Shown: positions 10,423 to 22,417, counted from the first letter of the stretch. The stretch: 64,000 bases of DNA from an uncultured Bacilli bacterium (GCA_910587725.1 CAJUNG010000001.1:1698-65697); one strand, 5' to 3'. The notes: a model not told the origin generated them from the sequence alone. Translations and numbers: made by a program.

Positions 10423-10845
10423 ATGAAAATAAATAACAATTGTGCGAGAAAAATCTTATTAGAAGTTGAAAAAATTCCTAATGGAGAAACTTTAACAGTG
10501 GCAAAATTACATGAAAAAATCTCAGAATTTACTATTGAAGATGTACTATTTATAGTAACTTTATTCAATAAAGAACATTATTTAACTGTACTTGATAAAG
10601 TTAGTTATGATGATAATGATGTTTTTAGAGATCACAAAATTAAATGTCTAACTGAAAAGGGTTATAAAACTTTAGATTTAATAAGAAATGGTGATATTTG
10701 GAATTTAATGATGGAAAAAATTAATAACTTTGATGAACTATCTATTTTTACAATTTTTAATATAGCAAATAAAATAATTAATGTTAGACATAATGAATTA
10801 TTTGATTTGCCTAAAGATTTATTAATAGAAAATATAAGATGGTAA
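10423..10845 (+). CDS. hypothetical protein (AT-rich, own promoter)
   Basis: A 140-aa ORF with an AGGAGG RBS and an extended -10 (TGATATAAT) at 10389-10397. No motif recognised. Confidence 0.5.
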   Translation: MKINNNCARKILLEVEKIPNGETLTVAKLHEKISEFTIEDVLFIVTLFNKEHYLTVLDKVSYDDNDVFRDHKIKCLTEKGYKTLDLIRNGDIWNLMMEKINNFDELSIFTIFNIANKIINVRHNELFDLPKDLLIENIRW

Positions 10846-10856
10846 AATTCACACGT

Positions 10857-10924
10857 TCATTGATGTTGTCAATGTACAAGTGTGTTTACTAAATTGACAA
10901 CATTTAGTATTTATGGACTACGAT
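10857..10924 (-). repeat. copy A of a ~66-bp repeated element (internal palindrome TTGTCAAT-N21-ATTGACAA)
   Basis: The reverse complement matches 19203-19268 at about 90% identity, with 48/52 in the core plus matching flanks TCGTAGTY and YATCAAT. Confidence 0.7.
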
Positions 10925-10955
10925 TTTAAAAATAATCGTGGTCCTTTTCTTTTTT
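10916..10955 (+). terminator. putative terminator of the 140-aa ORF
   Basis: Hairpin GGACTACGATT / AATCGTGGTCC (10/11) followed by a T-rich run. Confidence 0.45.
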
Positions 10956-11176
10956 GTCTAATTTATTGTAACCAATCCATCCTTGTTTAATAATAGGCTT
11001 AACACAAGCAAATCTACATATCATTAAGAGTCTTTTTAAAATTTCCTTATCAAACTCTAATTCCTATACTTCCTTCATAACTCATCACTTCCATTCTCAA
11101 ATAACAAAAAAACTAGACGGTACTTCTAGTTAATATTTATTACTCTCGAATAAAAAGTTCGAGTTTCCTATCTATA

Positions 11177-11262
11177 TGGTGCCCGAGGTCGGACTTGAAC
11201 CGACACGGTATTGCTACCAATGGATTTTGAGTCCATCGCGTCTACCATTCCACCACTCGGGC
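11177..11262 (-). tRNA. tRNA-Leu (anticodon CAA), type II with long variable arm
   Basis: The minus-strand read is GCCCGAGTGGTGGAATGGTAGACGCGATGGACTCAAAATCCATT...GGTTCAAGTCCGACCTCGGGCACCA. The anticodon loop is CTCAAAA, giving CAA. It is 86 nt and carries an encoded CCA. Confidence 0.85.
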
Positions 11263-11365
11263 AAGTTACGTATATGATTATACCATAACTTTTTTTGAAT
11301 GAAAACTACTTTTTCATTTTTTCAGCAAAATTTCTCAAAAAAAAATACGAATCTCGTTCGCATTT

Positions 11366-12481
11366 TTAATTCGTTGCCGATTTTCCTAAGGTCAATGTCG
11401 CATTAAATGTTTTATTTCCCCTAATACAAGTGACTTCTACACTATCACCTACTTGATATTGATATAATTCATATTTTAAGTAAGCCACATTATCTACTGA
11501 TTTATCTCCAATTTTCAAGATGACATCACCTTTTTGTAGGCCGGCTTTAGCTGCTGGACTATCTTTTTCCGTTCCTAATATTACTACTCCTGACTCAATT
11601 GAAGAATCAAGTTGAATTCCTTGTCTTAATAATTGATAAGTCTCTGTTGCATTTAACATCGTAACACCAATATAAGGTCTTTCAATTTTTTTCCCATTTT
11701 CTAATTCTTCAACATACTTCATTGCATATTCAATAGGAATCGCAAATCCCATACCCTCAATTTTATCTTCTACTAATTTTAAAGAATTGATTCCAATCAC
11801 TTCTCCATTTGCATTTAATAGAGGTCCTCCGCTATTTCCGGGATTAATTGCTGCATCAATTTGTAATACCTTCATAATCCAATCTTCTGTAGAAGTTACA
11901 CTTACGGATACCATACGATTCTTTCCAGAAAGACTTCCTCTCGTTACTGAACCACGATATTCATATCCCACTGGAGTTCCTACAGTAAATACGGTATCTC
12001 CAACATTTGAATTTTCACTCGTTCCAATCGTTGCTACCTGTGTTACTACACTAGCATCAATCTCTACTACTGCAAGGTCTAAATACTGGTCACTACCGAG
12101 AACACGACCTTCTACTTGATTATCATTAGACATCGTAATCATCAATTTATCATTACCATCAACTACATGGTGATTCGTCATAATATAAGCTTTGTCTCCT
12201 TCTTTTTTATAGACAAAACCACTTCCTGATGAAGCTACTTTACTTCCTTTATAATTCTGAATGGTCACCGTTGCATCATAAATTTTTCCAACCGAAGTCG
12301 CAATCCCTGTTTCATCAAGTTTGATATCATTTGCACATTTGACTACCCCCGTTGTTTCCGTTTTCGTATTCGTCACTATTTGATTAGGCATCTTTCCATC
12401 TAAAATCACATAGTAATTAAACATTCCCCCTAATACAAATACCGCAAATAATCCTAATAAATTTACAAATTTTTCTCTCAT
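11366..12481 (-). CDS. htrA: HtrA/DegP-family trypsin-like serine protease with C-terminal PDZ domain
   Basis: N-terminal TM anchor. Catalytic motifs MTNHHVV (His), D, and GNSGGPLLN (Ser), followed by a PDZ-like C-terminus. Confidence 0.9.
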   Translation of the reverse strand: MREKFVNLLGLFAVFVLGGMFNYYVILDGKMPNQIVTNTKTETTGVVKCANDIKLDETGIATSVGKIYDATVTIQNYKGSKVASSGSGFVYKKEGDKAYIMTNHHVVDGNDKLMITMSNDNQVEGRVLGSDQYLDLAVVEIDASVVTQVATIGTSENSNVGDTVFTVGTPVGYEYRGSVTRGSLSGKNRMVSVSVTSTEDWIMKVLQIDAAINPGNSGGPLLNANGEVIGINSLKLVEDKIEGMGFAIPIEYAMKYVEELENGKKIERPYIGVTMLNATETYQLLRQGIQLDSSIESGVVILGTEKDSPAAKAGLQKGDVILKIGDKSVDNVAYLKYELYQYQVGDSVEVTCIRGNKTFNATLTLGKSATN

Positions 12482-13461
12482 TCTTCCACCTTCTTATTAA
12501 TATTTTTTATCATCATATACTCCTTTGGAAATCCCATTCGATTTAATATTTTCTCTAAGGGAATCGTGTGTAGATTATACTCTAAGTTGTGAATTGCATC
12601 ATCAATTTCAATCATCATATTATTTAAACTTTCATTATCTAACAGTTCCTTTAATACAATAATTAGTGCAAAAATATCATTCGTTCCTTTTTTGTATTCT
12701 CCATCTTCTTTGTCAATTTTTAGTAAGGCATGATAAATCGTTCCCTCGATTTTCTTCTGGGTTCTATTTTCATAGACAATTTCTTCATGCGCACAAAGAT
12801 TTCTGTAGTTCGCAAGTAACGGAAGCGAGGTTTCTAAAAAATTGGACTCTACTTCGAAAATTTCAGCAATCTCCTCTTTGTCTTTCCTTTTTAATATGGT
12901 ATATAATTCTCCAACAATACCAAAAGATAACACTTTTACCATAATCCATAAAGGAATATATCCATAATTATTCATATAGTGGTATGTTGCTGTATGTTGG
13001 TTGGCATTCACTCTTACCTGTCGCTTCATCTTTTTTAAGATATCGTTAACTTGTCTAGACTTTAATGGGTCTGTTGTAAAGTTTGTCGGTTTTAAGTAAT
13101 CGACTTCTTTATATCCATACATTTTCGATAATTGATAAGAAATTATCGATTTCAAATTGTTCTCTACAATTAACAAGTTTTTAAACAAAATCGTTCTTAG
13201 TGTACGGTCAAACAAGAATAAACTATACATTTCTTCAAAGGTTGTACCTGGTAAATATTTTCCTGTTTGAGTATCTATAAACGGATGTCGATATCCACTT
13301 AGAAAGAAATAATTCTCTCTTAATAGAACTTTATTGGCATATTCTTCATCTTCTATTTGAACGCCTTTAAATTTTAGGATTTCTATTTGCTCATGTATTG
13401 TTTTAAATATCTTTTGCATTTTATCACTTTCCTCATCTACACTAAAAATTATAACATACAA
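12478..13461 (-). CDS. Abi_2 (AbiD/AbiD1/AbiF-like) abortive infection protein
   Basis: The N-terminus KIFKTIHEQIEILKFKGVQIEDEEYANKVLLRENYFFLSGYRHPF matches the characteristic Abi_2 N-terminal consensus. Its stop overlaps the htrA start by 4 nt. Confidence 0.7.
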   Translation of the reverse strand: MYVIIFSVDEESDKMQKIFKTIHEQIEILKFKGVQIEDEEYANKVLLRENYFFLSGYRHPFIDTQTGKYLPGTTFEEMYSLFLFDRTLRTILFKNLLIVENNLKSIISYQLSKMYGYKEVDYLKPTNFTTDPLKSRQVNDILKKMKRQVRVNANQHTATYHYMNNYGYIPLWIMVKVLSFGIVGELYTILKRKDKEEIAEIFEVESNFLETSLPLLANYRNLCAHEEIVYENRTQKKIEGTIYHALLKIDKEDGEYKKGTNDIFALIIVLKELLDNESLNNMMIEIDDAIHNLEYNLHTIPLEKILNRMGFPKEYMMIKNINKKVEE

Positions 13462-13749
13462 TTATAAAAAAGATATGAAAAAATTGTGGGAAATTGTGGA
13501 ATGTGTCACAAATCGATTTTCTTAGACTTTCTTTTTCTTTCAATTGTTCTCTTTTCGTTATATTTCGATATATATCGTTCGTATTTCAATCTCTATTTAA
13601 AAGCACAAAGAGAGAAGACTTTACATCTGATGCGTGGGGCGCTTGGGGAAATTTTTAATTCATCAAATTTGTTGAAACTCTCCTTATACTCTTGTTTTTA
13701 CCATGCACAAGATGGATGCTTTTTTGCTTTTTATAAGTTTGCAAAATAA

Positions 13750-13776
13750 TTAGCACTAATTATTGACAAGTGCTAA
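13750..13776 (+). promoter_or_regulatory. CIRCE-like HrcA operator overlapping the htpG promoter
   Basis: TTAGCACTA-N9-AAGTGCTAA, which is 8/9 plus 8/9 to the consensus TTAGCACTC-N9-GAGTGCTAA. It is embedded in TTGACA(13764)-N17-TATGAT. Confidence 0.6.
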
Positions 13777-13820
13777 AACCAGTGCTATGATAAGTACATC
13801 AATTTAAAGGAGATGAGAAA

Positions 13821-15701
13821 ATGGCAAAAAAACAATTTAAAGCCGAATCAAAAAAACTAATGGATTTAATGATTAATTCCATTTATACAAACAAAGAAAT
13901 TTTCTTACGAGAACTAATTTCTAATGCATCTGATGCAATTGATAAATTACACTATCGCTCTTTAACCGACAGTACAATCGAAGTCGATAAAAGCCAATTT
14001 AAAATCACTATCTCGGTTGATAAAGAGGCAAGAACCCTTACGATTTCTGATAATGGTTGCGGTATGAGTCAAGCGGAATTAGAAGAAAACCTAGGAACAA
14101 TTGCGAAGAGTGGGTCTTTTGACTTTAAAAACGAAAATGAACACAAGAAGGATATAGACATTATTGGACAATTTGGGGTAGGATTCTATTCCTCTTTTAT
14201 GGTTGCTCAAAAGGTACAAGTCATTTCTAGAAAGTTTAATGAAGAAAACGCATCTCTTTGGGAAAGCGAAGGGGTTAATGGATATACCTTAGAAAGTACT
14301 GATAAAGAGACTTATGGAACCGATATCATTCTAACCCTAAAAGAAGATACAGAAGAGGAAAACTATGCTAAATATTTAGAAGAATATACCATTCGTGAAC
14401 TAGTCAAGAAATATTCCGATTACATTACTTATCCGATTCAAATGGAAGTAGAAAAGAAAACATTAAAAGAAGGAACAAAAGACGAATATGAAATCGAAAA
14501 GAAAATGGAAACTTTCAATAGTTTAGTTCCACTTTGGAAAAAAGAGAAAAAGAAAATTAAGGATGAAGAGTATCAAACATTCTATAGCGATAAGTTCTTT
14601 GATTACGAAAAGCCATTAAAATGGATGCATGTGGATACTGAAGGAACAATTTCTTATTCTTCTATTCTGTTTATCCCATCTCATGCCCCTTTTGATTATT
14701 ACACTAAGGAATTTGAAAAAGGACTTCAACTTTATTCTAATGGTGTCCTAATTATGGAAAAATGTAGTGATTTATTACCAGACTACTTTAGCTTTGTCAA
14801 AGGTGTCGTCGATAGCTCTGACCTGTCTTTAAATATTTCTAGAGAGACCTTACAACAAGAAAGAAAATTACAAGTGATTGCAAAAAACATCGAATCAAAA
14901 ATTCATAAAGAATTATTAACTATGCAAAAAGAGGCGAGAGAAGATTATATCAAATTCTTCCAAGCATTCGGAAACAATATCAAATTTGGAATTTATAATA
15001 GCTACGGAATGAATAATGAGAAATTACAAGATTTATTGATGTTTGCTTCCTCTCATGATGAAAAATTAACAACACTTGAAGAATACATTTCTAGATTACA
15101 AGACGGACAAGAAAAAATTTACTATGCTTGTGGTGAATCGATTAGTAAAGTTTCTATGCTTCCTCAAGTAGAAGCAGTTAAAGAAAAGGGATATGAAATC
15201 TTATATCTTACAGATTATGTCGATGAATTTACTATTTCTATGTTACATACTTATAAAGATAAACACTTTGTGAATGTTTGTAGCGAAGAAGCAGATTTAG
15301 CTAGTGAAGAAGAAAAAGCAGAATTAAATAAGAAAAATGAAGATTGCAAAGAATTATTCACTTTAATGAAAGAGGCAATTGGTGAAGTAACCGAAGTTCG
15401 ATTTACCAACAAATTAAAAAATCATCCGGTTTGCTTAAGTAGTACTGGTGGCGTATCTGTCGAAATGGAAAAGGTCATCAATGCGATGCCAACAGAAGAA
15501 AAAGTGAAAGCCTCTACAATTTTAGAAATCAACGAAAATCATGAAATTGCGAAAAAAATAGAAACTCTCGCGAAAGAAAATCCGGAGGAATTAAAAAACT
15601 ATAGCAAAATCTTATATGCCCAAGCAAGATTGATTGAAGGACTTCCTATCGAAAATCCAACAGAAATCAGTAATCTAATTTTATCTAGTTTGGCAAAATA
15701 A
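13821..15701 (+). CDS. htpG: molecular chaperone HtpG (Hsp90)
   Basis: The N-terminus KAESKKLMDLMINSIYTNKEIFLRELISNASDAIDKL is the Bergerat ATP-binding fold. Length is 626 aa. Confidence 0.95.
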   Translation: MAKKQFKAESKKLMDLMINSIYTNKEIFLRELISNASDAIDKLHYRSLTDSTIEVDKSQFKITISVDKEARTLTISDNGCGMSQAELEENLGTIAKSGSFDFKNENEHKKDIDIIGQFGVGFYSSFMVAQKVQVISRKFNEENASLWESEGVNGYTLESTDKETYGTDIILTLKEDTEEENYAKYLEEYTIRELVKKYSDYITYPIQMEVEKKTLKEGTKDEYEIEKKMETFNSLVPLWKKEKKKIKDEEYQTFYSDKFFDYEKPLKWMHVDTEGTISYSSILFIPSHAPFDYYTKEFEKGLQLYSNGVLIMEKCSDLLPDYFSFVKGVVDSSDLSLNISRETLQQERKLQVIAKNIESKIHKELLTMQKEAREDYIKFFQAFGNNIKFGIYNSYGMNNEKLQDLLMFASSHDEKLTTLEEYISRLQDGQEKIYYACGESISKVSMLPQVEAVKEKGYEILYLTDYVDEFTISMLHTYKDKHFVNVCSEEADLASEEEKAELNKKNEDCKELFTLMKEAIGEVTEVRFTNKLKNHPVCLSSTGGVSVEMEKVINAMPTEEKVKASTILEINENHEIAKKIETLAKENPEELKNYSKILYAQARLIEGLPIENPTEISNLILSSLAK

Positions 15702-15718
15702 AACATCGTTAGACAAAT

Positions 15719-15767
15719 AAAACTACTAGAAAAAAATAGAAATTCTAGTAGTTTTTTGTTATGATAA
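15719..15767 (+). terminator. rho-independent terminator of htpG
   Basis: Perfect 12-bp stem AAACTACTAGAA / TTCTAGTAGTTT followed by TTTTTG. Confidence 0.7.
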
Positions 15768-15832
15768 GAAAAGAAAAAGAATTTTACTAAACATTATTGA
15801 GAGAAATATAAAAAAGTTAGGAAGGAGAATCT

Positions 15833-16054
15833 ATGAAAACTGTACTCATTTATCTAATTCGTCTTTATCAGAAGATTCCCGGTTTCTGGCACAATTTTTG
15901 CCGATTTACTCCGACCTGTTCTGAATATGCGTTAGTTGCCATCGAAAGATTTGGTGCGTTTCGTGGAAGTATATTAACTATTAAACGAATTTGTAGGTGC
16001 AATCCTTGGGGAGGATACGGATATGACCCTGTACCAGATAAAATCAAGAGATAA
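15833..16054 (+). CDS. yidD: membrane protein insertion efficiency factor YidD
   Basis: RLYQKIPGFWHNFCRFTPTCSEYALVAIERFGAFRGSILTIKRICRCNPWGGYGYDPVP is a near-canonical YidD sequence. Confidence 0.85.
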   Translation: MKTVLIYLIRLYQKIPGFWHNFCRFTPTCSEYALVAIERFGAFRGSILTIKRICRCNPWGGYGYDPVPDKIKR

Positions 16055-16134
16055 AACTTACAGATTTTCTAAGGCATTTTTCCATTTCCATTCTTTTCAA
16101 TTCTTGTTATAATGTTAACTAAAGGAGGATTCCT

Positions 16135-17106
16135 ATGGCAAGTAGTGTTACCCATGCTTATTTTATTTTAGATGTTTATGAAAAACTAGATATTGAAACT
16201 AAACGTTTTTTAGTCGATGAAAAAGATACGATGCGAGTCGCTTCTCAAGGAATGGACCCTTTATTCTTTTATAAGATATGGTATCCCAAAAAGGGAGCAC
16301 GCATTCGAGAATTTGGTGAATTTTTTCATGACCATCATACATTTTTATACTTTGAAAGAATGATTCATTATATTAAATATAATGGCTATGCCCATAACGC
16401 CGAAGTCATGGCTTTTCTTTATGGCGCCTTAAGTCATTATATTTTAGATGCAAATATTCATCCTTTTGTCATCTATCAAACTGGAGTATTTCAAAAGGAA
16501 GACGAAAAAACTTATCGTTATAATATGAAACATGGTGAGTTAGAGTCTATCCTCGATTGCTATCTCATCAGTTTAAGAGAAAGAAAAAAGCCTTGGAAAT
16601 TTTCATCAGCTACCTTCTGTATTCCTAAAACATCGTTTGAAAGTACGTTGAACGAGGTCATTGACTTTACATTCAAAGAAACATTTGACATCAATCATAT
16701 GACAAAATTTTACACTAGAGCACTTGCCGATATGCGTATATTTTATCAAGTTTTTCGACAAGATAAATTTGGATGCAAAAAAAGATTTTATCAAATTGTA
16801 GATAAAATATCACCTCCTGATTTCAGAAGAAAAACTCCGCTTTCTTATCATTATAAGCTAGATACATCTTTATTCAATTTAGCACATAAAACTTGGTATC
16901 ATCCAACAAGTAGAAAAATAAAGGCCAAAACATCGCTTTTAGATATTTACACTTCTAGTCTTTCTGAATGTGTTGCATTAATTAAAAATTTACAAAAATA
17001 TATTTACAATGATGAAGGAAATTTAGAAGAAATTTTAAAAAATGTTTCCTATCTGACAGGAAGAGACACGGAAGAACATTATCCGCTCAAATACTTTTCC
17101 TTTTAA
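16135..17106 (+). CDS. zinc-dependent phospholipase C family-like protein (tentative)
   Basis: N-terminal THAYFxxDV and the internal segment GALSHYILDANIHPF resemble the HYFGDxxxPxHP Zn-ligand region of PLC/alpha-toxin N-domains. The similarity is recalled from memory and not searched. Confidence 0.45.
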   Translation: MASSVTHAYFILDVYEKLDIETKRFLVDEKDTMRVASQGMDPLFFYKIWYPKKGARIREFGEFFHDHHTFLYFERMIHYIKYNGYAHNAEVMAFLYGALSHYILDANIHPFVIYQTGVFQKEDEKTYRYNMKHGELESILDCYLISLRERKKPWKFSSATFCIPKTSFESTLNEVIDFTFKETFDINHMTKFYTRALADMRIFYQVFRQDKFGCKKRFYQIVDKISPPDFRRKTPLSYHYKLDTSLFNLAHKTWYHPTSRKIKAKTSLLDIYTSSLSECVALIKNLQKYIYNDEGNLEEILKNVSYLTGRDTEEHYPLKYFSF

Positions 17107-17158
17107 ATTCTACGTATAATCTCTTTTCTTTAGCTCATTCTATTACTAGGTGATAACT

Positions 17159-18277
17159 ATGTTTTATAAGCATTTAGTAACAACGACAAATGGGCGTAGT
17201 ACGATTTATTTATATTTTAGTGCAAATTATGAAATTTCTGAAGATATGTATATTGTAAAAGATAATCAAGATGTTTTATCTTCGGCAAAAAATTATTTAG
17301 AAAACTTAGAAATTCCTTACAAAGGACGAGATATTTACTTAGTGGTTGAAGATGTCATTGTCGGGAGACTTCAATTAAAAGATTTTTTTAAAAAGCCCAA
17401 ATATATTGAATATATCCGTTATGGGAAGAAAACTCGAGTAGACTTTTTTGACCCAGATACCAATCCAGGTCTAAAATTAATTGATGTAAGACGCAGTAGT
17501 GGAATTTTAGAGGAAATGAAAATCGGAGAATATCTATTTGGTGTCGTTGCCAGAGAAATGCCATTTATCGACCACCCAGAATGTTTAAAAGCCCAAGCCG
17601 TTTTAGCAAGGACTTACCTTCTAAAGGTATTGAAAGAAAAGAAAAAATTACAAGAGTTAAATCAATTCCAACTTTATTTCGATAAAAACTATTTAAAATT
17701 ATTATGGAAAGATAAATTTAAGGAGTATCGGTCCCAAGTAATCGATGCTATTTTAGAAACAAGTAGAGAAGCATTAACCTTTAATCATGAATATATCGAG
17801 TGTTATAGTCACTATCAAAATTTAGGGCGTACAGAAGAGTCCCAAAATATTTTAAAACTTGCTTATCCTTATTTGACTTCTGTTCCTAGTATGGAAAATG
17901 ATACCTCCACTTTTGTAAGATATCGTAAAGTGAGTAATTTATATTTATCAAAATTATTGGATACAAAAATCTATGAAGGAATGCCTGTTAAGATTTTAAA
18001 GAGTTCTAGTGCTTACAATGTTCTTTATATTCAATTTGAAAACAAGGTTTTTGATGGCTTGCTACTCGCTCGTTCTTTAGGTCTTTCTTCGAATTGCTAT
18101 ACCGTTGAAGTAAATAAAGATTATACTACTTTTCTAACCAAAGGTTGTGGCCATGGTCTTGGACTTAGCAAATGTGGAGCAAAAGCAATGGAAGATTCGG
18201 GATATACTTATCAACAAATCTTGATGCATTATTACCCTAATACAAAATTAATCAAAGCTAGTGAAAGTATTCTATAA
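17159..18277 (+). CDS. SpoIID/LytB domain protein (amidase enhancer)
   Basis: YLFGVVAREMPFIDHPECLKAQAVLARTY and C-terminal GCGHGLGLSKCGAKAMEDSGYTYQQIL. ATG at 17159 with an AGGTGA RBS; the listed 17150 GTG lies within that RBS. Confidence 0.8.
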   Translation: MFYKHLVTTTNGRSTIYLYFSANYEISEDMYIVKDNQDVLSSAKNYLENLEIPYKGRDIYLVVEDVIVGRLQLKDFFKKPKYIEYIRYGKKTRVDFFDPDTNPGLKLIDVRRSSGILEEMKIGEYLFGVVAREMPFIDHPECLKAQAVLARTYLLKVLKEKKKLQELNQFQLYFDKNYLKLLWKDKFKEYRSQVIDAILETSREALTFNHEYIECYSHYQNLGRTEESQNILKLAYPYLTSVPSMENDTSTFVRYRKVSNLYLSKLLDTKIYEGMPVKILKSSSAYNVLYIQFENKVFDGLLLARSLGLSSNCYTVEVNKDYTTFLTKGCGHGLGLSKCGAKAMEDSGYTYQQILMHYYPNTKLIKASESIL

Positions 18278-18929
18278 CAGACTTGGTAATCGAGTCTGCT
18301 ATTTTTTTTTGATACTTTTCTGTTTGCATTAAGTATCTCTCATCTGGATTAGTAATAAAACCACATTCGATTAACACTCCTGGTACGGTTGTATTCTTAT
18401 ACATATAAAGGTCCGTCGTGAGTAATTTTCTCGTCGTTTTTAAATCGGTTTTAAAATTCTTCATCAAGATTTCTCCAAAGATTTTATTATTTTTATTAAT
18501 CTTATGATACAAAACTTCTGCTCCTCTATCATTTGAAGAATTCCCCGCATTAATATGTATGGAAAGATAGAGTTCGGCATTATATTTTTTGTACATTAAA
18601 AGTCTTCTATACAAATCGCCTCTTTTTTTTCTAGGGTCCCATTCACTTGATAGGTCTTCATCGCTATCTCTTGTCATATAAACTATAGCACCTTTTTCCA
18701 TAAGAGCATCTCTTAGGACATAGGAAATCTCTAATACAATATCCTTCTCCATTGTCTTCCCCACCATAGCCCCTGGATCACGACCTCCATGGCCAGGGTC
18801 AACAAAGATGACTCTTCCTAAAAGAGGGAGTTCTTCTATCGTTGCATTTACCTTGATAAAAAAGAATGCTCCAATAAAAAGAAGGAGAAGAATAACCGGG
18901 ATTATTTTTTTTGACACATGCATCACCAT
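18258..18929 (-). CDS. N-acetylmuramoyl-L-alanine amidase (Amidase_3, CwlD-like)
   Basis: N-terminal TM, then VIFVDPGHGGRDPGA, an E residue and LYLSIHINAG, which are the Amidase_3 zinc-site motifs. It is convergent with the SpoIID gene and overlaps it by 20 nt. Confidence 0.85.
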   Translation of the reverse strand: MVMHVSKKIIPVILLLLFIGAFFFIKVNATIEELPLLGRVIFVDPGHGGRDPGAMVGKTMEKDIVLEISYVLRDALMEKGAIVYMTRDSDEDLSSEWDPRKKRGDLYRRLLMYKKYNAELYLSIHINAGNSSNDRGAEVLYHKINKNNKIFGEILMKNFKTDLKTTRKLLTTDLYMYKNTTVPGVLIECGFITNPDERYLMQTEKYQKKIADSITKSVIEYFH

Positions 18930-19202
18930 AGTAAATTATATGTCAATGAAAAGTTTTTTTTCAAGTTCTTCTGGGGAAAGCTTTGACTTACTTCACTGAA
19001 ATAGTTTTTTAATCATGATATTGATTATTTCGAACTTTTTATTATTAGTAAATTTTTGGAGAAACAAAAAGGGAAGAGGACTCAAATTAAGGATTTTTAT
19101 GATAACCACTTATATAACGATTCTGATATTTCATTGATTATAAAAGATACATCTAAAGAAAAAGAAATGAATTTTAGAAGAAAAGGACTTGGGTTTTAAC
19201 TC

Positions 19203-19268
19203 GTAGTTCATAAATACTAAATGGTGTCAATTTAGTAAAAACACACTTGCAAATTGACAATATCAATT
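19203..19268 (+). repeat. copy B of the ~66-bp repeated element (see 10857-10924), overlapping the -35 of the downstream promoter
   Basis: TCGTAGTTCATAAATACTAAATGGTGTCAATTTAGTAAAAACACACTTGCAAATTGACAATATCAAT. Confidence 0.7.
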
Positions 19269-19287
19269 TACAGATTATAATGAGTAT
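19253..19287 (+). promoter_or_regulatory. consensus sigma-A-type promoter for the P-loop protein gene
   Basis: TTGACA, a 16-17-nt spacer, then TATAAT, located 8-10 nt upstream of the AGGTGG RBS. Confidence 0.5.
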
Positions 19288-19299
19288 TAGGTGGTTAGA

Positions 19300-19896
19300 A
19301 TGAAAGAATATAAGATTAATATGTTTAAAGATAAAGATGATTATGAAAAAGTTTTAACAGATGATAATGTTGTAAATATTATCGGTACAAAGGGTTCAGG
19401 AAAAACCACTGCTTCATTAAAATATATAAATGATAGTGATTATATAGTTATAAACTGTGATAGATTATTAGGGTTAATCGGGAGTAATGAAGAAGAAGAT
19501 AAAGAACTACCTATAATAAGGAGTATGTTGAAAAATAAATATGGAGTAATCAAAGAAGGAAAAAAATTTATCTATTGCTATAATGATATAGTTGATTATA
19601 TAAAAAAGAAAGATAAAAAAGCTTTAATTGAAGGTAATATAATTCAAGAAATAGAGCCTATCACGCAATTAAAAGGAAAAATTATTATTAAAAGAACTGG
19701 GATTATCAAAAGCTTTATTAGAGCAGTTAAAAGAGACTATTCTAATGAATATTTTATGAATATTGAAATAAAGAAATATGGTAAACTTGGAAAAATAACA
19801 AGACTTTTAAAAATAGCATATAGAAGAAAAAGTATATTTAAAACGAAAAGGGATATAGAAAGAAAAATAAAAGAATTGGCGTCTTTAAAAAATTAA
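19300..19896 (+). CDS. small P-loop NTPase/kinase-like protein (hypothetical)
   Basis: Walker A IIGTKGSGKTT near the N-terminus and a lysine-rich C-terminus; 22-25% GC. ATG at 19300 (track start 19291 is a GTG inside the RBS). Confidence 0.5.
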   Translation: MKEYKINMFKDKDDYEKVLTDDNVVNIIGTKGSGKTTASLKYINDSDYIVINCDRLLGLIGSNEEEDKELPIIRSMLKNKYGVIKEGKKFIYCYNDIVDYIKKKDKKALIEGNIIQEIEPITQLKGKIIIKRTGIIKSFIRAVKRDYSNEYFMNIEIKKYGKLGKITRLLKIAYRRKSIFKTKRDIERKIKELASLKN

Positions 19897-20131
19897 GTGG
19901 TTGTTGAACATCCTTCTCGATGTCAATAATCTTTTGTTTGTAAATAAAATTGACTCTACCTCTAAGCTCAATGAATAATAAGATAAGAGATGGGGAGCTA
20001 ATTTTATAGATTTAAATATCTTGGATACAAATTATCTAAAATCAAATGCGCATCATAACTAATGAATATTTCTCTCATTAGTTTACATCTTTAAATATGC
20101 CTGATATAATTATCACAAGGAGGAAAAAATT

Positions 20132-20329: not shown

Positions 20330-20680
20330 TAAATTTAAAAATCGCTAAATTCTAAAATCGTTTTGGATTTATGTCAAGTAACCCTTTTAGTAGTCTAAAT
20401 TTTAAGATATTGCTAGGTTGGTAACATAGTTGTTAGATTTTTGATTAGATGTAATGTGCCTTAATATACGATGAATACGTATGTGCCATATTAACTCTCG
20501 ATAATTCAATACGAATCAATTTATCTAACTAAATGTATCTAAAAACTTGGGATAAGTCCACTGAAAATATCTTCGTTCATATAGAACGTAAATGATTTCA
20601 AAATTAAGAGATAATTTCTGTCAAAGGTGCATAATAATCACTTTAAGAGGCGAGCATACAAAAGAGGGGATATACACAAT

Positions 20681-22417
20681 ATGAAGAATAAGAAATATGG
20701 TTTTTTTAATGCATTTAAAGATTTGTTTATGTATGCAAAAGAAAACAGAAAGATGTACATCATAGGATTATTATTTATGGTTATCTTCGTTATCACATCA
20801 ATGCTTTATACGACTAGTTATTCGAACTTAATTGCTAACATCATGAGTTTAAATTTAGATAAAGCATTAAAACTTGCTCTAGTTTGTGGCGTTTTACGTT
20901 TGTTTTCGATTACCTTTTGCCATAATCAATATAGGAAAATAGTAATTCGTTCAGGAGAACAAATATCAGCTACGATTCAAAAAAAAATATATTCAAAGGT
21001 TTTATCTTTATCCATGAGTTCTTTTGAAAATATGAAATCGGGGAAAATCTTCACGACAATAAGAGCAGCCGATAGTGGAATGATGAGTACAATCAGTTCT
21101 TTACTTCAAGAAAGTGCGTATTGTTGTACTTCGATAGTTATGCTTATAGTCATATTCTTTATTGACTATAAGATAGGCTTAGCAGTAACGACGATATCTA
21201 TAATGAGTTTATATTTGTTTAAATTACAGTTAAATAAATCAAAAAAATATCTACATGATGAGTTTGAGCACTCTGATAACTATTCAACACTTATTAATGA
21301 AACGACAAAAGGAATTAGAGAAATTAAGGCTTTAAACTTAAAAGAAATATGCTATGATTTATTTAAGAATGATATAGACAGTTTAAAAGACACGCGAATA
21401 ACACGAAGATTGTTAGGAAAAAATGTGAATACGGCAAAATGGACCATTAGAATTATTGGAGATACTCTAATTATTCTCTATATCATTAATCAGTTAAAAT
21501 GGTCATTAATTTCAGTAGAAACAGCAATGTTACTTATCACATATATGAATAACGTAGTAGATGATGTTTTTCATAGAATAATAGAACATGATTTTGGAAT
21601 TTCTGAATTTACTGCTAATATGGAAAGAATTAAGTCCTTGTTAGAGGATGACAAATTAGAAAAAGAAAAATTTGGCGATACAGAATACAAAGATATTGTA
21701 GGAAATATTGAATTGAAGAATGTAATCTTTTCATATAATAATAGTAATGAAAATCTTCTGAACAAAGTTTCATTTAGAATTGAGAATAAAAAGAAAAATG
21801 CTATAATTGGGATGTCCGGATGTGGGAAGACCACCATTTTTAAACTGCTATTAAGGCAATATGATAACTATCGAGGAGATATATTAATTGACAACCATAA
21901 TGTTAAAGATTTTACAGAAAACAGTTTAAGAAATACAATAACGATTGTTAATCAAGAACCGATGTTATTCAATATGAGCATAAAAGACAATCTTTTGATG
22001 GTCAAAGAAAATGCGACAGATGACGAAATAAAAAAAGCTTGTAAACTTGCCAATATAGATAGCTTTATAGAAAAATTACCAAACAAATATGATGAAATAA
22101 TAGAAGAGAATACGACGAATTTATCCGTCGGTCAAAAACAAAGAATTGCGATTGCAAGAGCAATACTAAAAAATACACCAATTATATTGTTTGATGAGGT
22201 AACTAGTGCCTTAGATGGTAATAGTAAAAAAGCCATCGAAAAAACAATTAATGAACTATCTAAAGAGAAAACCGTTGTGGTTATCGTGCATACATTAGAT
22301 AGTATTGAAGGTTATGATAATATAATTGTTTTAAAAGAAGGCAAAGTATCCGAATGTGGAAATCATGAGCAATTGATTAAACAGAAAGGATTATATTATC
22401 GGATGATTAACCTTTAG
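20681..22417 (+). CDS. ABC transporter, fused permease/ATP-binding protein (exporter type)
   Basis: Six-TM N-terminal half. Walker A GMSGCGKTT, signature LSVGQKQRIAIARA and Walker B ILFDEVTSALD. ATG at 20681 with a GAGGGG RBS. Confidence 0.85.
   Translation: MKNKKYGFFNAFKDLFMYAKENRKMYIIGLLFMVIFVITSMLYTTSYSNLIANIMSLNLDKALKLALVCGVLRLFSITFCHNQYRKIVIRSGEQISATIQKKIYSKVLSLSMSSFENMKSGKIFTTIRAADSGMMSTISSLLQESAYCCTSIVMLIVIFFIDYKIGLAVTTISIMSLYLFKLQLNKSKKYLHDEFEHSDNYSTLINETTKGIREIKALNLKEICYDLFKNDIDSLKDTRITRRLLGKNVNTAKWTIRIIGDTLIILYIINQLKWSLISVETAMLLITYMNNVVDDVFHRIIEHDFGISEFTANMERIKSLLEDDKLEKEKFGDTEYKDIVGNIELKNVIFSYNNSNENLLNKVSFRIENKKKNAIIGMSGCGKTTIFKLLLRQYDNYRGDILIDNHNVKDFTENSLRNTITIVNQEPMLFNMSIKDNLLMVKENATDDEIKKACKLANIDSFIEKLPNKYDEIIEENTTNLSVGQKQRIAIARAILKNTPIILFDEVTSALDGNSKKAIEKTINELSKEKTVVVIVHTLDSIEGYDNIIVLKEGKVSECGNHEQLIKQKGLYYRMINL

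Follow-up and report, generated by a model that had tools for sequence, protein, structure and literature searches.

Results

Features of the locus

The window, which is the whole 64,000-nt stretch of DNA analysed, carries two inverted copies of a short repeat, copy A and copy B, on either side of 8.3 kb that hold tRNA-Leu, htrA, AbiD, htpG and cell-wall genes. Copy A sits inside an 895-bp mini-element (window 10287-11181) at tRNA-Leu(CAA), followed by parts of a second element:

11177-11262, minus: tRNA-Leu(CAA), the integration target (ARAGORN; Rfam tRNA, 57 bits)
11181 to 11177, minus: attL core CACCA, the last five bases of tRNA-Leu(CAA) (left-junction alignment, in which element homology begins at CACCA)
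10974-11181, minus: left end of mini-element A, ~208 nt (95.7% to L007 2336-2543, 89.6% to L042)
10946-10967, minus: last relaxase (mob) codons, ...KKEKDHDYF-stop (BLAST, L042 5630-5747 to window 10967-10848)
10915-10944, plus: hairpin 1, an 11-bp stem, then TTTTCTTTTT (terminator scan, DNA fold, covariation)
10850-10909, plus: predicted oriT copy A, nick strand (alignments, DNA fold, comparison with pMV158; PMC3105389, PMC5863519)
10887-10909, plus: hairpin 2, copy A
between 10884 and 10885, plus: predicted nick GTGTG/TT, copy A
10850-10884, plus: IR3-like hairpin CACAC...GTGTG, copy A
10423-10845, plus (antisense to the element backbone): cargo gene, 140-aa DUF2513 protein (Pfam PF10711, E = 2.4e-10)
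10287-10371, minus: right end of mini-element A, conserved 85-nt segment (exact 31-nt match, right-end alignment, BLAST)
10291 to 10287, minus: attR core CACCA, mini-element A
10099-10286, minus: divergent 'type-2' left end of a second tandem element, starting from the attR CACCA of mini-element A (81-83% to L011 682-854 and L020 710-797)
9985-10098, minus: fragment X, a relaxase 3' coding remnant, inverted copy of 18981-19090 (repeat search, alignment)

The left end, in which the pattern CACCAGATTGATAGGAAACTCGAAC was found at 11157-11181 with 2 mismatches, corresponds to the stretch that forms the non-coding leader ahead of the recombinase gene in full elements. In mini-element A the mob tail (...EEKDYDYF-stop at the C-termini of family relaxases) is fused straight to this left end, with a ~3.3-kb internal deletion. 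The DUF2513 gene lies between the oriT and the right end, the position of cargo in family loci, and hairpin 1 appears to be a terminator-like structure on the nick strand that ends DUF2513 transcription. The right end closes with a mimic of a tRNA 3' end, ...GAGTTGTTGTACTTCTCTCTCTCGGGCACCA. As in a CIME, the integration and transfer genes of mini-element A are gone and attL and attR are kept with both CACCA cores; with both ends and a complete predicted oriT, it could still move if recombinase and relaxase were provided in trans. Of the second tandem element, fragment X stops at the terminator of a 301-aa gene, and in L011 the type-2 left end precedes sequence that matches the recombinase portion of the backbone.

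Copy B is the distal part of another element, with a relaxase tail, an oriT, P-loop cargo and a decayed right end:

18981-19199, plus: fragment X' and relaxase 3' coding remnant of relic B (...DNHLYNDSDISLIIKDTSKEKEM..., frameshifted; BLAST 84-86% to family mob 3' ends of L007 and L020; translation compared with family C-termini)
19185-19209, plus: decayed hairpin 1 of relic B (alignment; in the fold the stem is mostly gone)
19215-19277, minus: predicted oriT copy B, with the minus strand as nick strand (alignment, fold, covariance model)
19215-19237: hairpin 2, copy B
complement of 19246-19242: GTGTG, copy B
between the complements of 19242 and 19241: predicted nick, copy B
19247-19277: inner inverted repeat, copy B, 10-bp stem
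19254-19281, plus: hybrid promoter TTGACA-16-TATAAT, 12/12 matches (promoter scan)
19300-19896, plus: cargo gene of relic B, 198-aa P-loop protein (weak nSTAND3/AAA Pfam matches)
19900-19927, plus: decayed right end of relic B (GTTGTTGAACATCCTTCTCG...), CACCA core gone (motif shared with family right ends)

The nick region and the inner repeat of copy B are intact and its outer CACAC/GTGTG stem is gone; without this stem and hairpin 1, copy B may be inactive. The P-loop gene, which was called at the same coordinates in GCA_950096875.1, lies between the oriT and the right-end remnant. The right ends of L009, L028, L057 and L059 read GTTGTTGAACGTCC, with CACCA ~13 nt further on (CATCA in L057).

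The original prediction of a repeat present twice in inverted orientation held up, as the pair 10859-10951/19178-19267 is ~88% identical in its core. A repeat search of the window recovered inverted arms of 51 nt (10880-10930 and 19194-19244; 90%) and of 29 nt (10859-10887 and 19239-19267; 90%), which are offset by a 2-nt indel. Direct local alignment of 10951-10859 with 19178-19267 gave 78 identities in 95 columns (82%), with ~53/60 (88%), counted by hand from this alignment, in the 66-bp core that had been marked originally. Two sub-patterns of 26-31 nt each matched exactly the copy A and copy B sites, with 0/100 shuffles doing so, and an unfiltered covariance model found two sites only in the window, at 128 and 76 bits (copy B being the latter); no third copy was present in the window, the next-best match scoring 18.6 bits (E = 0.57). 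The internal palindrome had been described with a 21-nt spacer; this is the spacing in copy B, whose left half-site is GTGTCAAT, and copy A has 19 nt. The similarity does exceed a shared operator half-site, as had been argued, and it outruns the marked core to take in the hairpin and the last relaxase-gene codons. Each copy also adjoins an accessory gene, DUF2513 cargo at copy A and P-loop cargo at copy B. A second inverted pair (~9985-10098 versus 18981-19090; repeat search, alignment) is part of the same relics.

The element family and its backbone

A family scan with the 21-nt core, using one genome per species, returned 52 loci, ~49 of which are true. In ~50 MAG species the same module, ~110 nt long, stands right after the stop codon of a MobV relaxase gene: in 14 loci its distance from the stop codon of the 412-418-aa ORF is 0-20 nt, and ~20 more loci have a truncated ORF in front of it. 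Matches of this ORF to Pfam Mob_Pre (E = 3.7e-30), to the NCBIfam MobV equivalog (112 bits; cut-off 100) and to PDB 4LVI (MobM; E = 2.7e-16), whose KHN and HxDE..PHxH motifs line up with it, identify it as a MobV relaxase. The relaxase gene is preceded and overlapped by a gene for a 613-aa large serine recombinase with Resolvase, Recombinase and Zn_ribbon_recom domains. These two ORFs are the only ones in a ~3.6-kb backbone, which has no mating-pore genes and starts from the CACCA with which tRNA or tmRNA genes end; the relics in the window have lost both.

The backbone is followed by variable cargo and then by an 85-nt segment imitating the 3' end of a tRNA, so that a full element runs in the order ~208-nt left end, recombinase, MobV, hairpin, oriT, 1-3 cargo genes and 85-nt right end stopping at CACCA. 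The CACCA core is shared by both host junctions (left- and right-junction alignments; window 11177-11181 and 10287-10291), and the targets, the CACCA 3' ends of at least eight tRNA species and of tmRNA, are left undisrupted. The cargo observed includes aminoacyl-tRNA synthetase-like genes, an AAC-APH-type aminoglycoside resistance gene, ABC transporters and NTPases. Mini-elements with independent deletions (L016, L031, L051, L059, L061, L069, L083 and L105) retain the left end, the oriT core, cargo and the right end. Among 61 metagenome loci there was no circular contig and none with terminal repeats; right-end/left-end junctions were present, on contigs resembling tandem arrays. No DNA match to the backbone was found in PLSDB plasmids.

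The conserved module as a predicted origin of transfer

The 66-bp copies are most probably the oriT module of a widespread small integrative mobilizable element, present here as gene-poor relics. The layout of the module is CACACGTTCATTGA-TTATG-TCAATGTAC-AA-GTGTG/TTTACTAAAT, and its most invariant part is CAAGTGTG-TTTACTAAAT, including bases that lie outside the search pattern. Folded as single-stranded DNA, the intact L042 module gave z = -7.9 and copy A z = -4.9. Hairpin 3 shows compensatory changes at three pairs in the module alignment. An independent set, found via the left end, has two-sided changes at 24 of its 32 pairs; pairing is kept in 90.9% of cells, as against 70.7% in shuffles, and all ten pairs of hairpin 1 (10/10) covary. 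Members of alignment A1 were collected by their hairpin 2, which leaves this helix no freedom to vary there; alignment A3 was fitted to the covariance model. The backbone offered no alternative oriT candidate: its recombinase and mob ORFs overlap, and no rival GTGTG-type hairpin was seen in the left end (left-junction alignment).

The oriT of pMV158, the MOBV1 prototype with the relaxase MobM, was compared through its published 42-mer and reads GCACACACTTTATGAATATAAAGTATAGTGTG/TTATACTTTA (PMC3105389); it overlaps the two mob promoters and contains IR3, with a 12-bp stem, a 4-nt loop, a 3-nt right-arm bulge and the nick at its 3' end, and IR2, which straddles the nick (PMC5863519). The family module shares with it the relaxase family (PDB 4LVI match, NCBIfam MobV), a hairpin with a CACAC...GTGTG base and a right-arm bulge, and the sequence GTGTG/TT(A)TACT at the nick (a predicted one in the family module), with the GTGTG/TT motif at the 3' end of the hairpin. 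A second inverted repeat crosses the nick in both systems (TGTCAAT/ATTGACA in the family module); in copy A the palindrome originally noticed, TTGTCAAT/ATTGACAA, straddles the predicted nick as IR2 does. Both sites adjoin mob, with mob on the 3' (leading) side of the nick. However, the family site lies downstream of mob with the nick motif antisense, whereas that of pMV158 lies upstream on the coding strand; the family module has no conserved promoter, the sequence of its inner stem bears no relation to that of pMV158, the bases on the 3' side of the nick make a hairpin of their own, and the carrier is an integrated element instead of a rolling-circle plasmid. Direct identity covers ~12 nt round the nick and the CACAC base, and the remainder of the likeness is one of architecture alone. 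Among plasmid relaxases, the closest MobV (50% identity) belongs to a Clostridium baratii plasmid, in which ATTGACA-N8-TGTCAAT followed by ...AAAGTGTA stands upstream of mobV.

Nicking, the crossover point and mobility are predicted here from sequence comparison. The recombinase would integrate and excise the element through a crossover within CACCA, and the relaxase would bind the inverted repeats of oriT and nick the antisense strand of its own gene, at AAGTGTG/TTTAC; in ...TCAATGTACAAGTGTGTTTACTAAAT, the predicted MobV cut falls between G and T. A helper conjugative element would then export the nicked DNA. Hairpin 1 seems to act as a transcription terminator, which would give part of the conserved block a transcriptional role.

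Alternative explanations

Three consecutive hairpins with compensatory changes could also suggest an RNA element that regulates expression of the relaxase or the cargo. It might belong to the relaxase mRNA, as a structured 3' UTR or a terminator region, or else be a small antisense transcript whose end lies at hairpin 1. The terminator scan does report hairpin 1 and its T-run as an intrinsic terminator of the antisense strand, and mini-elements swap hairpin 1 for other hairpin-plus-T-run sequences. We nevertheless regard such an element as improbable: no Rfam match was obtained and the window yields four tRNAs only, the top conservation falls on the unpaired AAGTGTG-TTT between the hairpins and not on the stems, the block matches a proven DNA site of the same protein family, and it is kept in mini-elements that have lost mob, its would-be target. 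Because the cargo side is variable, there is also no conserved promoter from which an antisense RNA could be launched. A portable promoter or operator cassette with a dedicated regulator, the reading favoured by the original prediction, is very unlikely, even though copy B does supply the -35 of a consensus promoter as predicted: its TTGACA-16-TATAAT is perfect and lies 19 nt upstream of the P-loop gene, the oriT of pMV158 overlaps promoters as well, and cargo genes lie mostly downstream of the module in the same orientation. Across the family, however, a weak -10 at 16-18 nt occurs in only 4 of 30 distinct flanks, under the 17% background, and TTGACA is not conserved, many members having TGACAT, TTGGCA or TTGCCA instead. 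The hexamer of copy A has no -10 and faces the 3' end of an opposing gene, and several cargo modules open with their own hairpin and promoter-like sequence. In copy B the -35 comes from the arm of the oriT inverted repeat and the -10 from diverged sequence that replaces the GTGTG arm. This promoter is a local accident and no family feature; the likeliest binding protein would be the MobV relaxase instead of a dedicated transcription regulator.

As improbable as the RNA element is the reading that the serine recombinase or the relaxase uses the module as a recombination site or an accessory site (Pre/RSA-type, cargo-swapping) in place of a transfer origin. Such a site would suit the sharp end of conservation at the outer base of hairpin 3, where variable cargo starts, the first description of MobV proteins as plasmid recombination enzymes (hence the Pfam name Mob_Pre) and the need for the oriT region in NBU1 excision (PMC5704250). 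Yet the element joins the chromosome at the CACCA cores, at a distance of 0.5-4.5 kb to one side and 3.5 kb to the other, and the predicted nick is 35 nt within the conserved block, not at the cargo boundary. As RSA-type recombination is normally a side activity of oriT, this explanation largely overlaps with an origin of transfer. Finally, a single composite element with the two copies as its inverted ends is extremely unlikely, and so is a chance resemblance on either side of the 8.3 kb. Their inverted arrangement around tRNA-Leu, htrA, AbiD, htpG and the cell-wall genes would suit a composite element, but the genes inside are housekeeping genes, each copy belongs to an element context of its own, whose ends and cargo lie outside the bracket, and no family locus has two modules flanking a segment, there being one match per locus. 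The two copies are instead separate relics that face each other, and chance is excluded by the shuffles (0/100) and the ~49 true family loci.

Discussion

The class of element to which the oriT module appears to belong is already known, and the targeting of tRNA ends and the position of oriT look new. Tn4451/Tn4453 of clostridia (TnpX and the Mob/Pre protein TnpZ) and IME_Class_6 of streptococci are small integrative mobilizable elements (PMC5704250, PMC5357655). Like the family described here, they have a large serine recombinase and a MobV relaxase as their only mobility genes and short direct end repeats. Tn4451, however, integrates with low specificity at sites with a 2-bp core, whereas the family sits at tRNA/tmRNA CACCA ends; other such serine-recombinase elements integrate inside protein genes and disrupt them, in contrast to the undisrupted targets of the family, whose other end, unlike in the Tn4451 class, carries the tRNA-3'-end mimic. 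The RSA/oriT site of Tn4451 is upstream of tnpZ.

Mini-element A also resembles CIMEs and the products of tandem accretion (PMC5704250), in that the recombinase and relaxase are missing, the att ends are kept and a second element abuts attR. In contrast to CIMEs, the family mini-elements also keep oriT, so that trans factors would be needed for both excision and transfer, and the described tRNA-gene cases use tyrosine integrases. The suggestion of a copied cassette or MITE-like repeat family pointed in the right direction, but the 66 bp are an internal module of a 3.6-kb-plus element and not themselves an element. Short non-autonomous derivatives, several copies per genome and a need for trans-acting enzymes are shared with MITEs. 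Unlike MITEs, the family lacks terminal inverted repeats and the target-site duplication of DDE transposases, its two ends are unrelated (leader versus tRNA mimic), and the 66-bp repeat is internal and not terminal. We rejected a MITE, given the unrelated ends and the assignment of the inverted copies to two different relics.

It is possible, if somewhat short of an even chance, that the family represents an undescribed gene-cassette shuttle: a serine-recombinase/MobV element that inserts at the near-universal C72-A73-CCA terminus found in many tRNA genes and in tmRNA, rebuilds a pseudo-tRNA end that lets elements stack in tandem, carries 1-3 cargo genes and has its oriT after the relaxase gene on the antisense strand. 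With oriT in this unusual position and orientation, transfer would carry away the strand that serves as template for the mobility genes. The two predicted oriTs of the window stand face to face, 8.3 kb apart; should both remain nickable, any mobilization of the chromosome would have this segment as its leading DNA.

Results

The inverted repeat and a family of related loci

A repeat search of the window returned two inverted pairs, 10880-10930 with 19194-19244 and 10859-10887 with 19239-19267, each 90% complementary and offset from one another by a 2-nt indel, and thus placed both copies of the ~66-bp repeat where the original prediction had them (copy A, 10857-10924; copy B, 19203-19268). A direct alignment carried the homology further, matching 10951-10859 to 19178-19267 with identity in 78 of 95 columns, and 26-31-nt sub-patterns matched the two copies only in the window, with 0 matches in shuffles. 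The palindrome described within each copy has the proposed 21-nt spacer in copy B but a 19-nt spacer in copy A. No third copy was detected in the 64 kb by a covariance model run with filters off (128 and 76 bits for the two copies; next hit 18.6 bits, E = 0.57), and an Rfam search of the window returned tRNAs only, with no match at the repeat. As set out below, the repeat most likely represents the relic transfer origin of a mobile element, an explanation of an ordinary kind.

When one genome per species was scanned with the 21-nt core ACTAAATNNTGTCAATTTAGT, 52 loci were recovered, most of them in MAGs labelled as uncultured Bacilli or Tenericutes. Three (L024, L027 and L043) share the core only and resemble chance matches; the remaining loci share a ~110-nt block of three hairpins, beyond the last of which the similarity ends abruptly. 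The family that carries this block occurs in ~50 MAG species, mostly with uncultured Bacilli or Tenericutes labels, and also in metagenome contigs, several with a human gut label.

Hairpins of the conserved block
Hairpin 1: GGACTACGATT-N8-AATCGTAGTCC
Hairpin 2: ACTAAAT-N7-ATTTAGT
Hairpin 3, imperfect: CACACTTGTACATTGA-CATAA-TCAATGAACGTGTG

The block starts at the stop codon of an ORF with the C-terminus ...EEKDYD(Y/I)F; 14 loci have it at 412-418 aa and ~20 others in truncated form. This ORF is a predicted MobV relaxase, as it matches Pfam Mob_Pre (E = 3.7e-30), exceeds the cut-off of the NCBIfam MobV equivalog and resembles MobM of pMV158 (PDB 4LVI; E = 2.7e-16) with aligned histidine motifs. 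Upstream of it, an overlapping ORF encodes a large serine recombinase (613 aa) that contains Resolvase, Recombinase and zinc-ribbon domains.

Element ends, targets and cargo

Pairwise comparison of the loci delimited a backbone of ~3.6 kb (for example, 2142-5745 of L042 in relaxase-gene orientation), the left boundary of which is CACCA, the final five bases of a tRNA or tmRNA gene. Behind the hairpin block follows a variable cargo of 0.5-4.5 kb, usually one to three genes in the same orientation, and beyond it a conserved 85-nt segment with the terminus ...GAGTTGTTGTACTTCTCTCTCTCGGGCACCA, which resembles the T-arm and acceptor 3' strand of a tRNA. Between the family loci L007 and L049, 96.6% identity persists to the terminus of this segment.

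Element termini that would meet in a circular joint
Right end: ...CTCTCGGGCACCA
Left end, start: GATTGATAGGAAAC...

Among all loci fetched, the left ends adjoin tRNA-Thr(GGT), Thr(CGT), Leu(CAA), Leu(GAG), Arg(CCT), Arg(CCG), Phe and Ile as well as five tmRNA genes; in 22 cases the neighbour is the pseudo-tRNA end of a resident element, in tandem, or no recognisable tRNA. Because the left ends abut so many tRNA and tmRNA genes, the family appears to integrate at C72-A73-C-C-A, a site that the far end of the element is predicted to recreate. From this anatomy, the serine recombinase would perform the integration, with crossover within CACCA. A left-junction scan with GGCACCA (the last seven bases of the tRNA or right end) plus the left-end start yielded 61 loci, among which no contig had the terminal repeats of an excised circle.

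The family cargo is cassette-like and diverse (regions after the block in L018, L052, L012/L046, L033, L010, L003 and L042). It includes GluRS-like and GlyRS-like aminoacyl-tRNA synthetase genes, a bifunctional acetyltransferase-phosphotransferase of the aminoglycoside-resistance type, ABC transporters, an HSDR_N/STAND NTPase, a DnaJ-domain protein and a WYL-HTH regulator. Four loci also share a breakpoint in the serine recombinase gene, immediately before GACACATTCC (L013 ~71, L025 ~66, L041 ~3338 and L047 ~52, in relaxase-gene orientation), directly preceded by ...ggta in three of the four (L013, L041 and L047). Since the leftward sequence differs from the full-length gene, these loci apparently lack the catalytic resolvase domain; the shared breakpoint could mark a clonal deletion lineage or a second recombination site.

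The block as a predicted origin of transfer

We considered several functions for the block. Its structured, abruptly ending form behind a ~415-aa gene prompted the reading as a TnpB omega-RNA or an IS200-605 right end, which was rejected because that gene encodes the predicted MobV relaxase. The true right end of the element is excluded by the conserved 85-nt end past the cargo and by the 96.6% identity of L049 and L007 that reaches it, and an integrase att site by host junctions that lie at CACCA cores elsewhere. From its sequence, the block is most likely an origin of transfer (oriT).

The published pMV158 oriT reads GCACACACTTTATGAATATAAAGTATAGTGTG/TTATACTTTA (PMC3105389); IR3 forms a hairpin (12-bp stem, 4-nt loop, 3-nt right-arm bulge) with the nick at its 3' end, and IR2 straddles the nick (PMC5863519). 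Antisense to the relaxase gene, the family block reads CACACGTTCATTGA-TTATG-TCAATGTAC-AA-GTGTG/TTTACTAAAT-TGACACC-ATTTAGTA, and the predicted nick strand is CACACGTTCATTGATTATGTCAATGTACAAGTGTGTTTACTAAATTGACACC, with a predicted cut between GTGTG and TTT. The two sites share an identical CACAC...GTGTG base, the right-arm bulge, GTGTG/TT(A)TACT at the nick (predicted in the family) and a repeat across the nick. In the family this repeat is TGTCAAT...ATTGACA, which is the palindrome of the original prediction. Unlike in pMV158, the family site lies behind the relaxase gene and its predicted nick motif is on the antisense strand.

Conservation is consistent with this assignment. Within the alignment, invariance peaks at CAAGTGTG-TTTACTAAAT, where it also covers bases beyond the search pattern, and the inner stem of the large hairpin shows compensatory changes, for example GTTCATTGA/TCAATGTAC versus GCATAATGA/TCATTATGC. 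A second set of loci, recovered through the left end only, holds more distant versions that keep CACAC, AGTGTG/TT and the pairing; in their alignment, which was fitted to the model, both sides change in 24 of 32 pairs, and pairing holds in 90.9% of cells versus 70.7% in shuffles. Single-strand folds scored z = -7.9 (L042) and -4.9 (copy A) against shuffles. With the recombinase and relaxase ORFs overlapping and no GTGTG-type motif seen in the left end, the backbone offers no other non-coding oriT candidate. Independently deleted mini-elements retain the left end, block, cargo and right end, and this retention of the block is as expected of a cis-acting transfer site. The nearest plasmid relaxase, at 50% identity, is that of a Clostridium baratii plasmid (L116, NZ_CP124311.1), which carries ATTGACA-N8-TGTCAAT followed by ...AAAGTGTA ~200 nt upstream of mobV. 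L116 also carries a TTTACTAAATT...AATTTAGTAAA palindrome (features at 2052-2087 and 2813-2850), and its motifs recall, in the canonical upstream position, the block's hairpin 2 and inner repeat.

Hairpin 1, which has a T-run on the antisense strand, was called as an intrinsic terminator. Distant members have other hairpins with T-runs in its place, and in the second, model-fitted set covariation extends to all ten of its pairs; it is taken to be a terminator that protects the backbone from cargo-side transcription.

Decayed elements in the window

The tRNA-Leu(CAA) gene of the window carries a stack of decayed mobile elements, and another relic holds copy B.

Element features in the window
11262-11177, minus strand: tRNA-Leu(CAA)
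11181-10974, minus: left end of mini-element A, 95.7% identical to L007
10967-10848, minus: last relaxase codons, hairpin 1 and complete predicted oriT (copy A), joined directly to the left end
10423-10845, plus: DUF2513 gene, opposite to mini-element A
10371-10287, minus: right end of mini-element A, 85 nt, ending in CACCA
10286-10099, minus: divergent left end directly after attR of A, similar to L011 and L020
10098-9985, minus: relaxase-tail fragment following the divergent left end
From ~18981, plus: relaxase tail of relic B
Plus: hairpin 1 of relic B, decayed
Copy B: predicted oriT of relic B, with hairpin 2, nick region and 10-bp inner repeat intact and outer stem lost
19300-19896, plus: P-loop gene of relic B
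19900-19927, plus: right end of relic B, decayed

Mini-element A is 895 bp long after an internal deletion of ~3.3 kb, and L016 and L051 are derivatives of the same kind. Its DUF2513 gene is terminated by hairpin 1, according to the terminator call. By analogy with the minimal pMV158 site, which consists of IR1 plus 8 nt (PMC5863519), copy B may still be a relaxase substrate.

The AT-rich orphan genes for the DUF2513 and P-loop proteins are cargo of these decayed elements. Neither they nor a 65-aa ORF had a PADLOC match or, by tblastn, a homologue in any fetched locus. The only window cargo query with tblastn matches there was an ABC transporter downstream of relic B (20627-22417, plus strand; its matches include one of 31.5% identity over 558 aa, to the cargo ABC transporter of L010), which could be cargo of a further decayed element; no element end sequences were found around it. 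Upstream of the relics lies a 1780-aa ORF (3720-9062, plus strand), whose 1778-aa counterpart in GCA_950096875.1 has Peptidase_M60, fn3 and F5/F8 type C Pfam matches and a weak dockerin match.

The predicted oriTs A and B face each other, each from a different relic, and bracket 8.3 kb with housekeeping genes and one AbiD gene. The latter (12478-13461, minus strand) lies between htrA and htpG (Pfam Abi_2, E = 3e-43; PADLOC AbiD, E = 8e-58). A second inverted pair, 9985-10098 and 18981-19090, consists of relaxase-tail remnants that are ~85% identical with a 10-nt indel; the left copy partly forms the terminator (9972-9992) of a gene for a 301-aa protein. This pair suggests either the trace of a ~9-kb inversion or two partial copies of one deleted element. 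Judged from the sequence, a hypothetical inversion of 10099-18980 would put the divergent left end directly before copy B, and the result would be a tandem of two mini-elements at tRNA-Leu, by analogy with L020. A metagenome scan with the 301-aa protein found no close relatives.

The prediction that copy B supplies the -35 of a consensus promoter was borne out by a perfect match (TTGACA-16-TATAAT, 19254-19281). This -35 of the P-loop promoter is an arm of the inner oriT repeat, and the -10 occupies the site of the lost GTGTG arm. A copied promoter cassette, which had also been suggested, is not a feature of the family: a weak -10 or better occurs in only 4 of 30 distinct family flanks, with a background of 17%, and TTGACA itself varies. 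Therefore, the promoter is a local hybrid and not a function of the block; the strong promoter of the P-loop gene is built from a putative relaxase-binding repeat.

Discussion

Mobilizable integrated elements that combine a serine recombinase with MobV are known from Tn4451 and a streptococcal class, and decayed elements that keep their ends, as well as tandem accretion, have been described before (PMC5704250; PMC5357655). These reviews assign tRNA 3' ends to tyrosine integrases and describe serine-recombinase elements as inserting within genes or with little target specificity (PMC5704250; PMC5357655). For the present family, the CCA end of many different tRNA genes and of tmRNA is the apparent target of a serine recombinase. 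Our literature search found no paper describing this family, although such absence is not proof of novelty. In DNA searches of PLSDB plasmids, the backbone had no match, and the only match of the block was weak (39 bits, E = 0.9), fell within a Vibrio transporter gene and is taken as chance.

In summary, an unexplained repeat in the window has become a concrete element map, and the block marks a wider family of small mobilizable elements with properties that are somewhat unexpected and can be tested. Should the family be active, it would serve as a compact carrier of single-gene cargo, an aminoglycoside resistance gene included, and would offer an easily testable oriT and att system.
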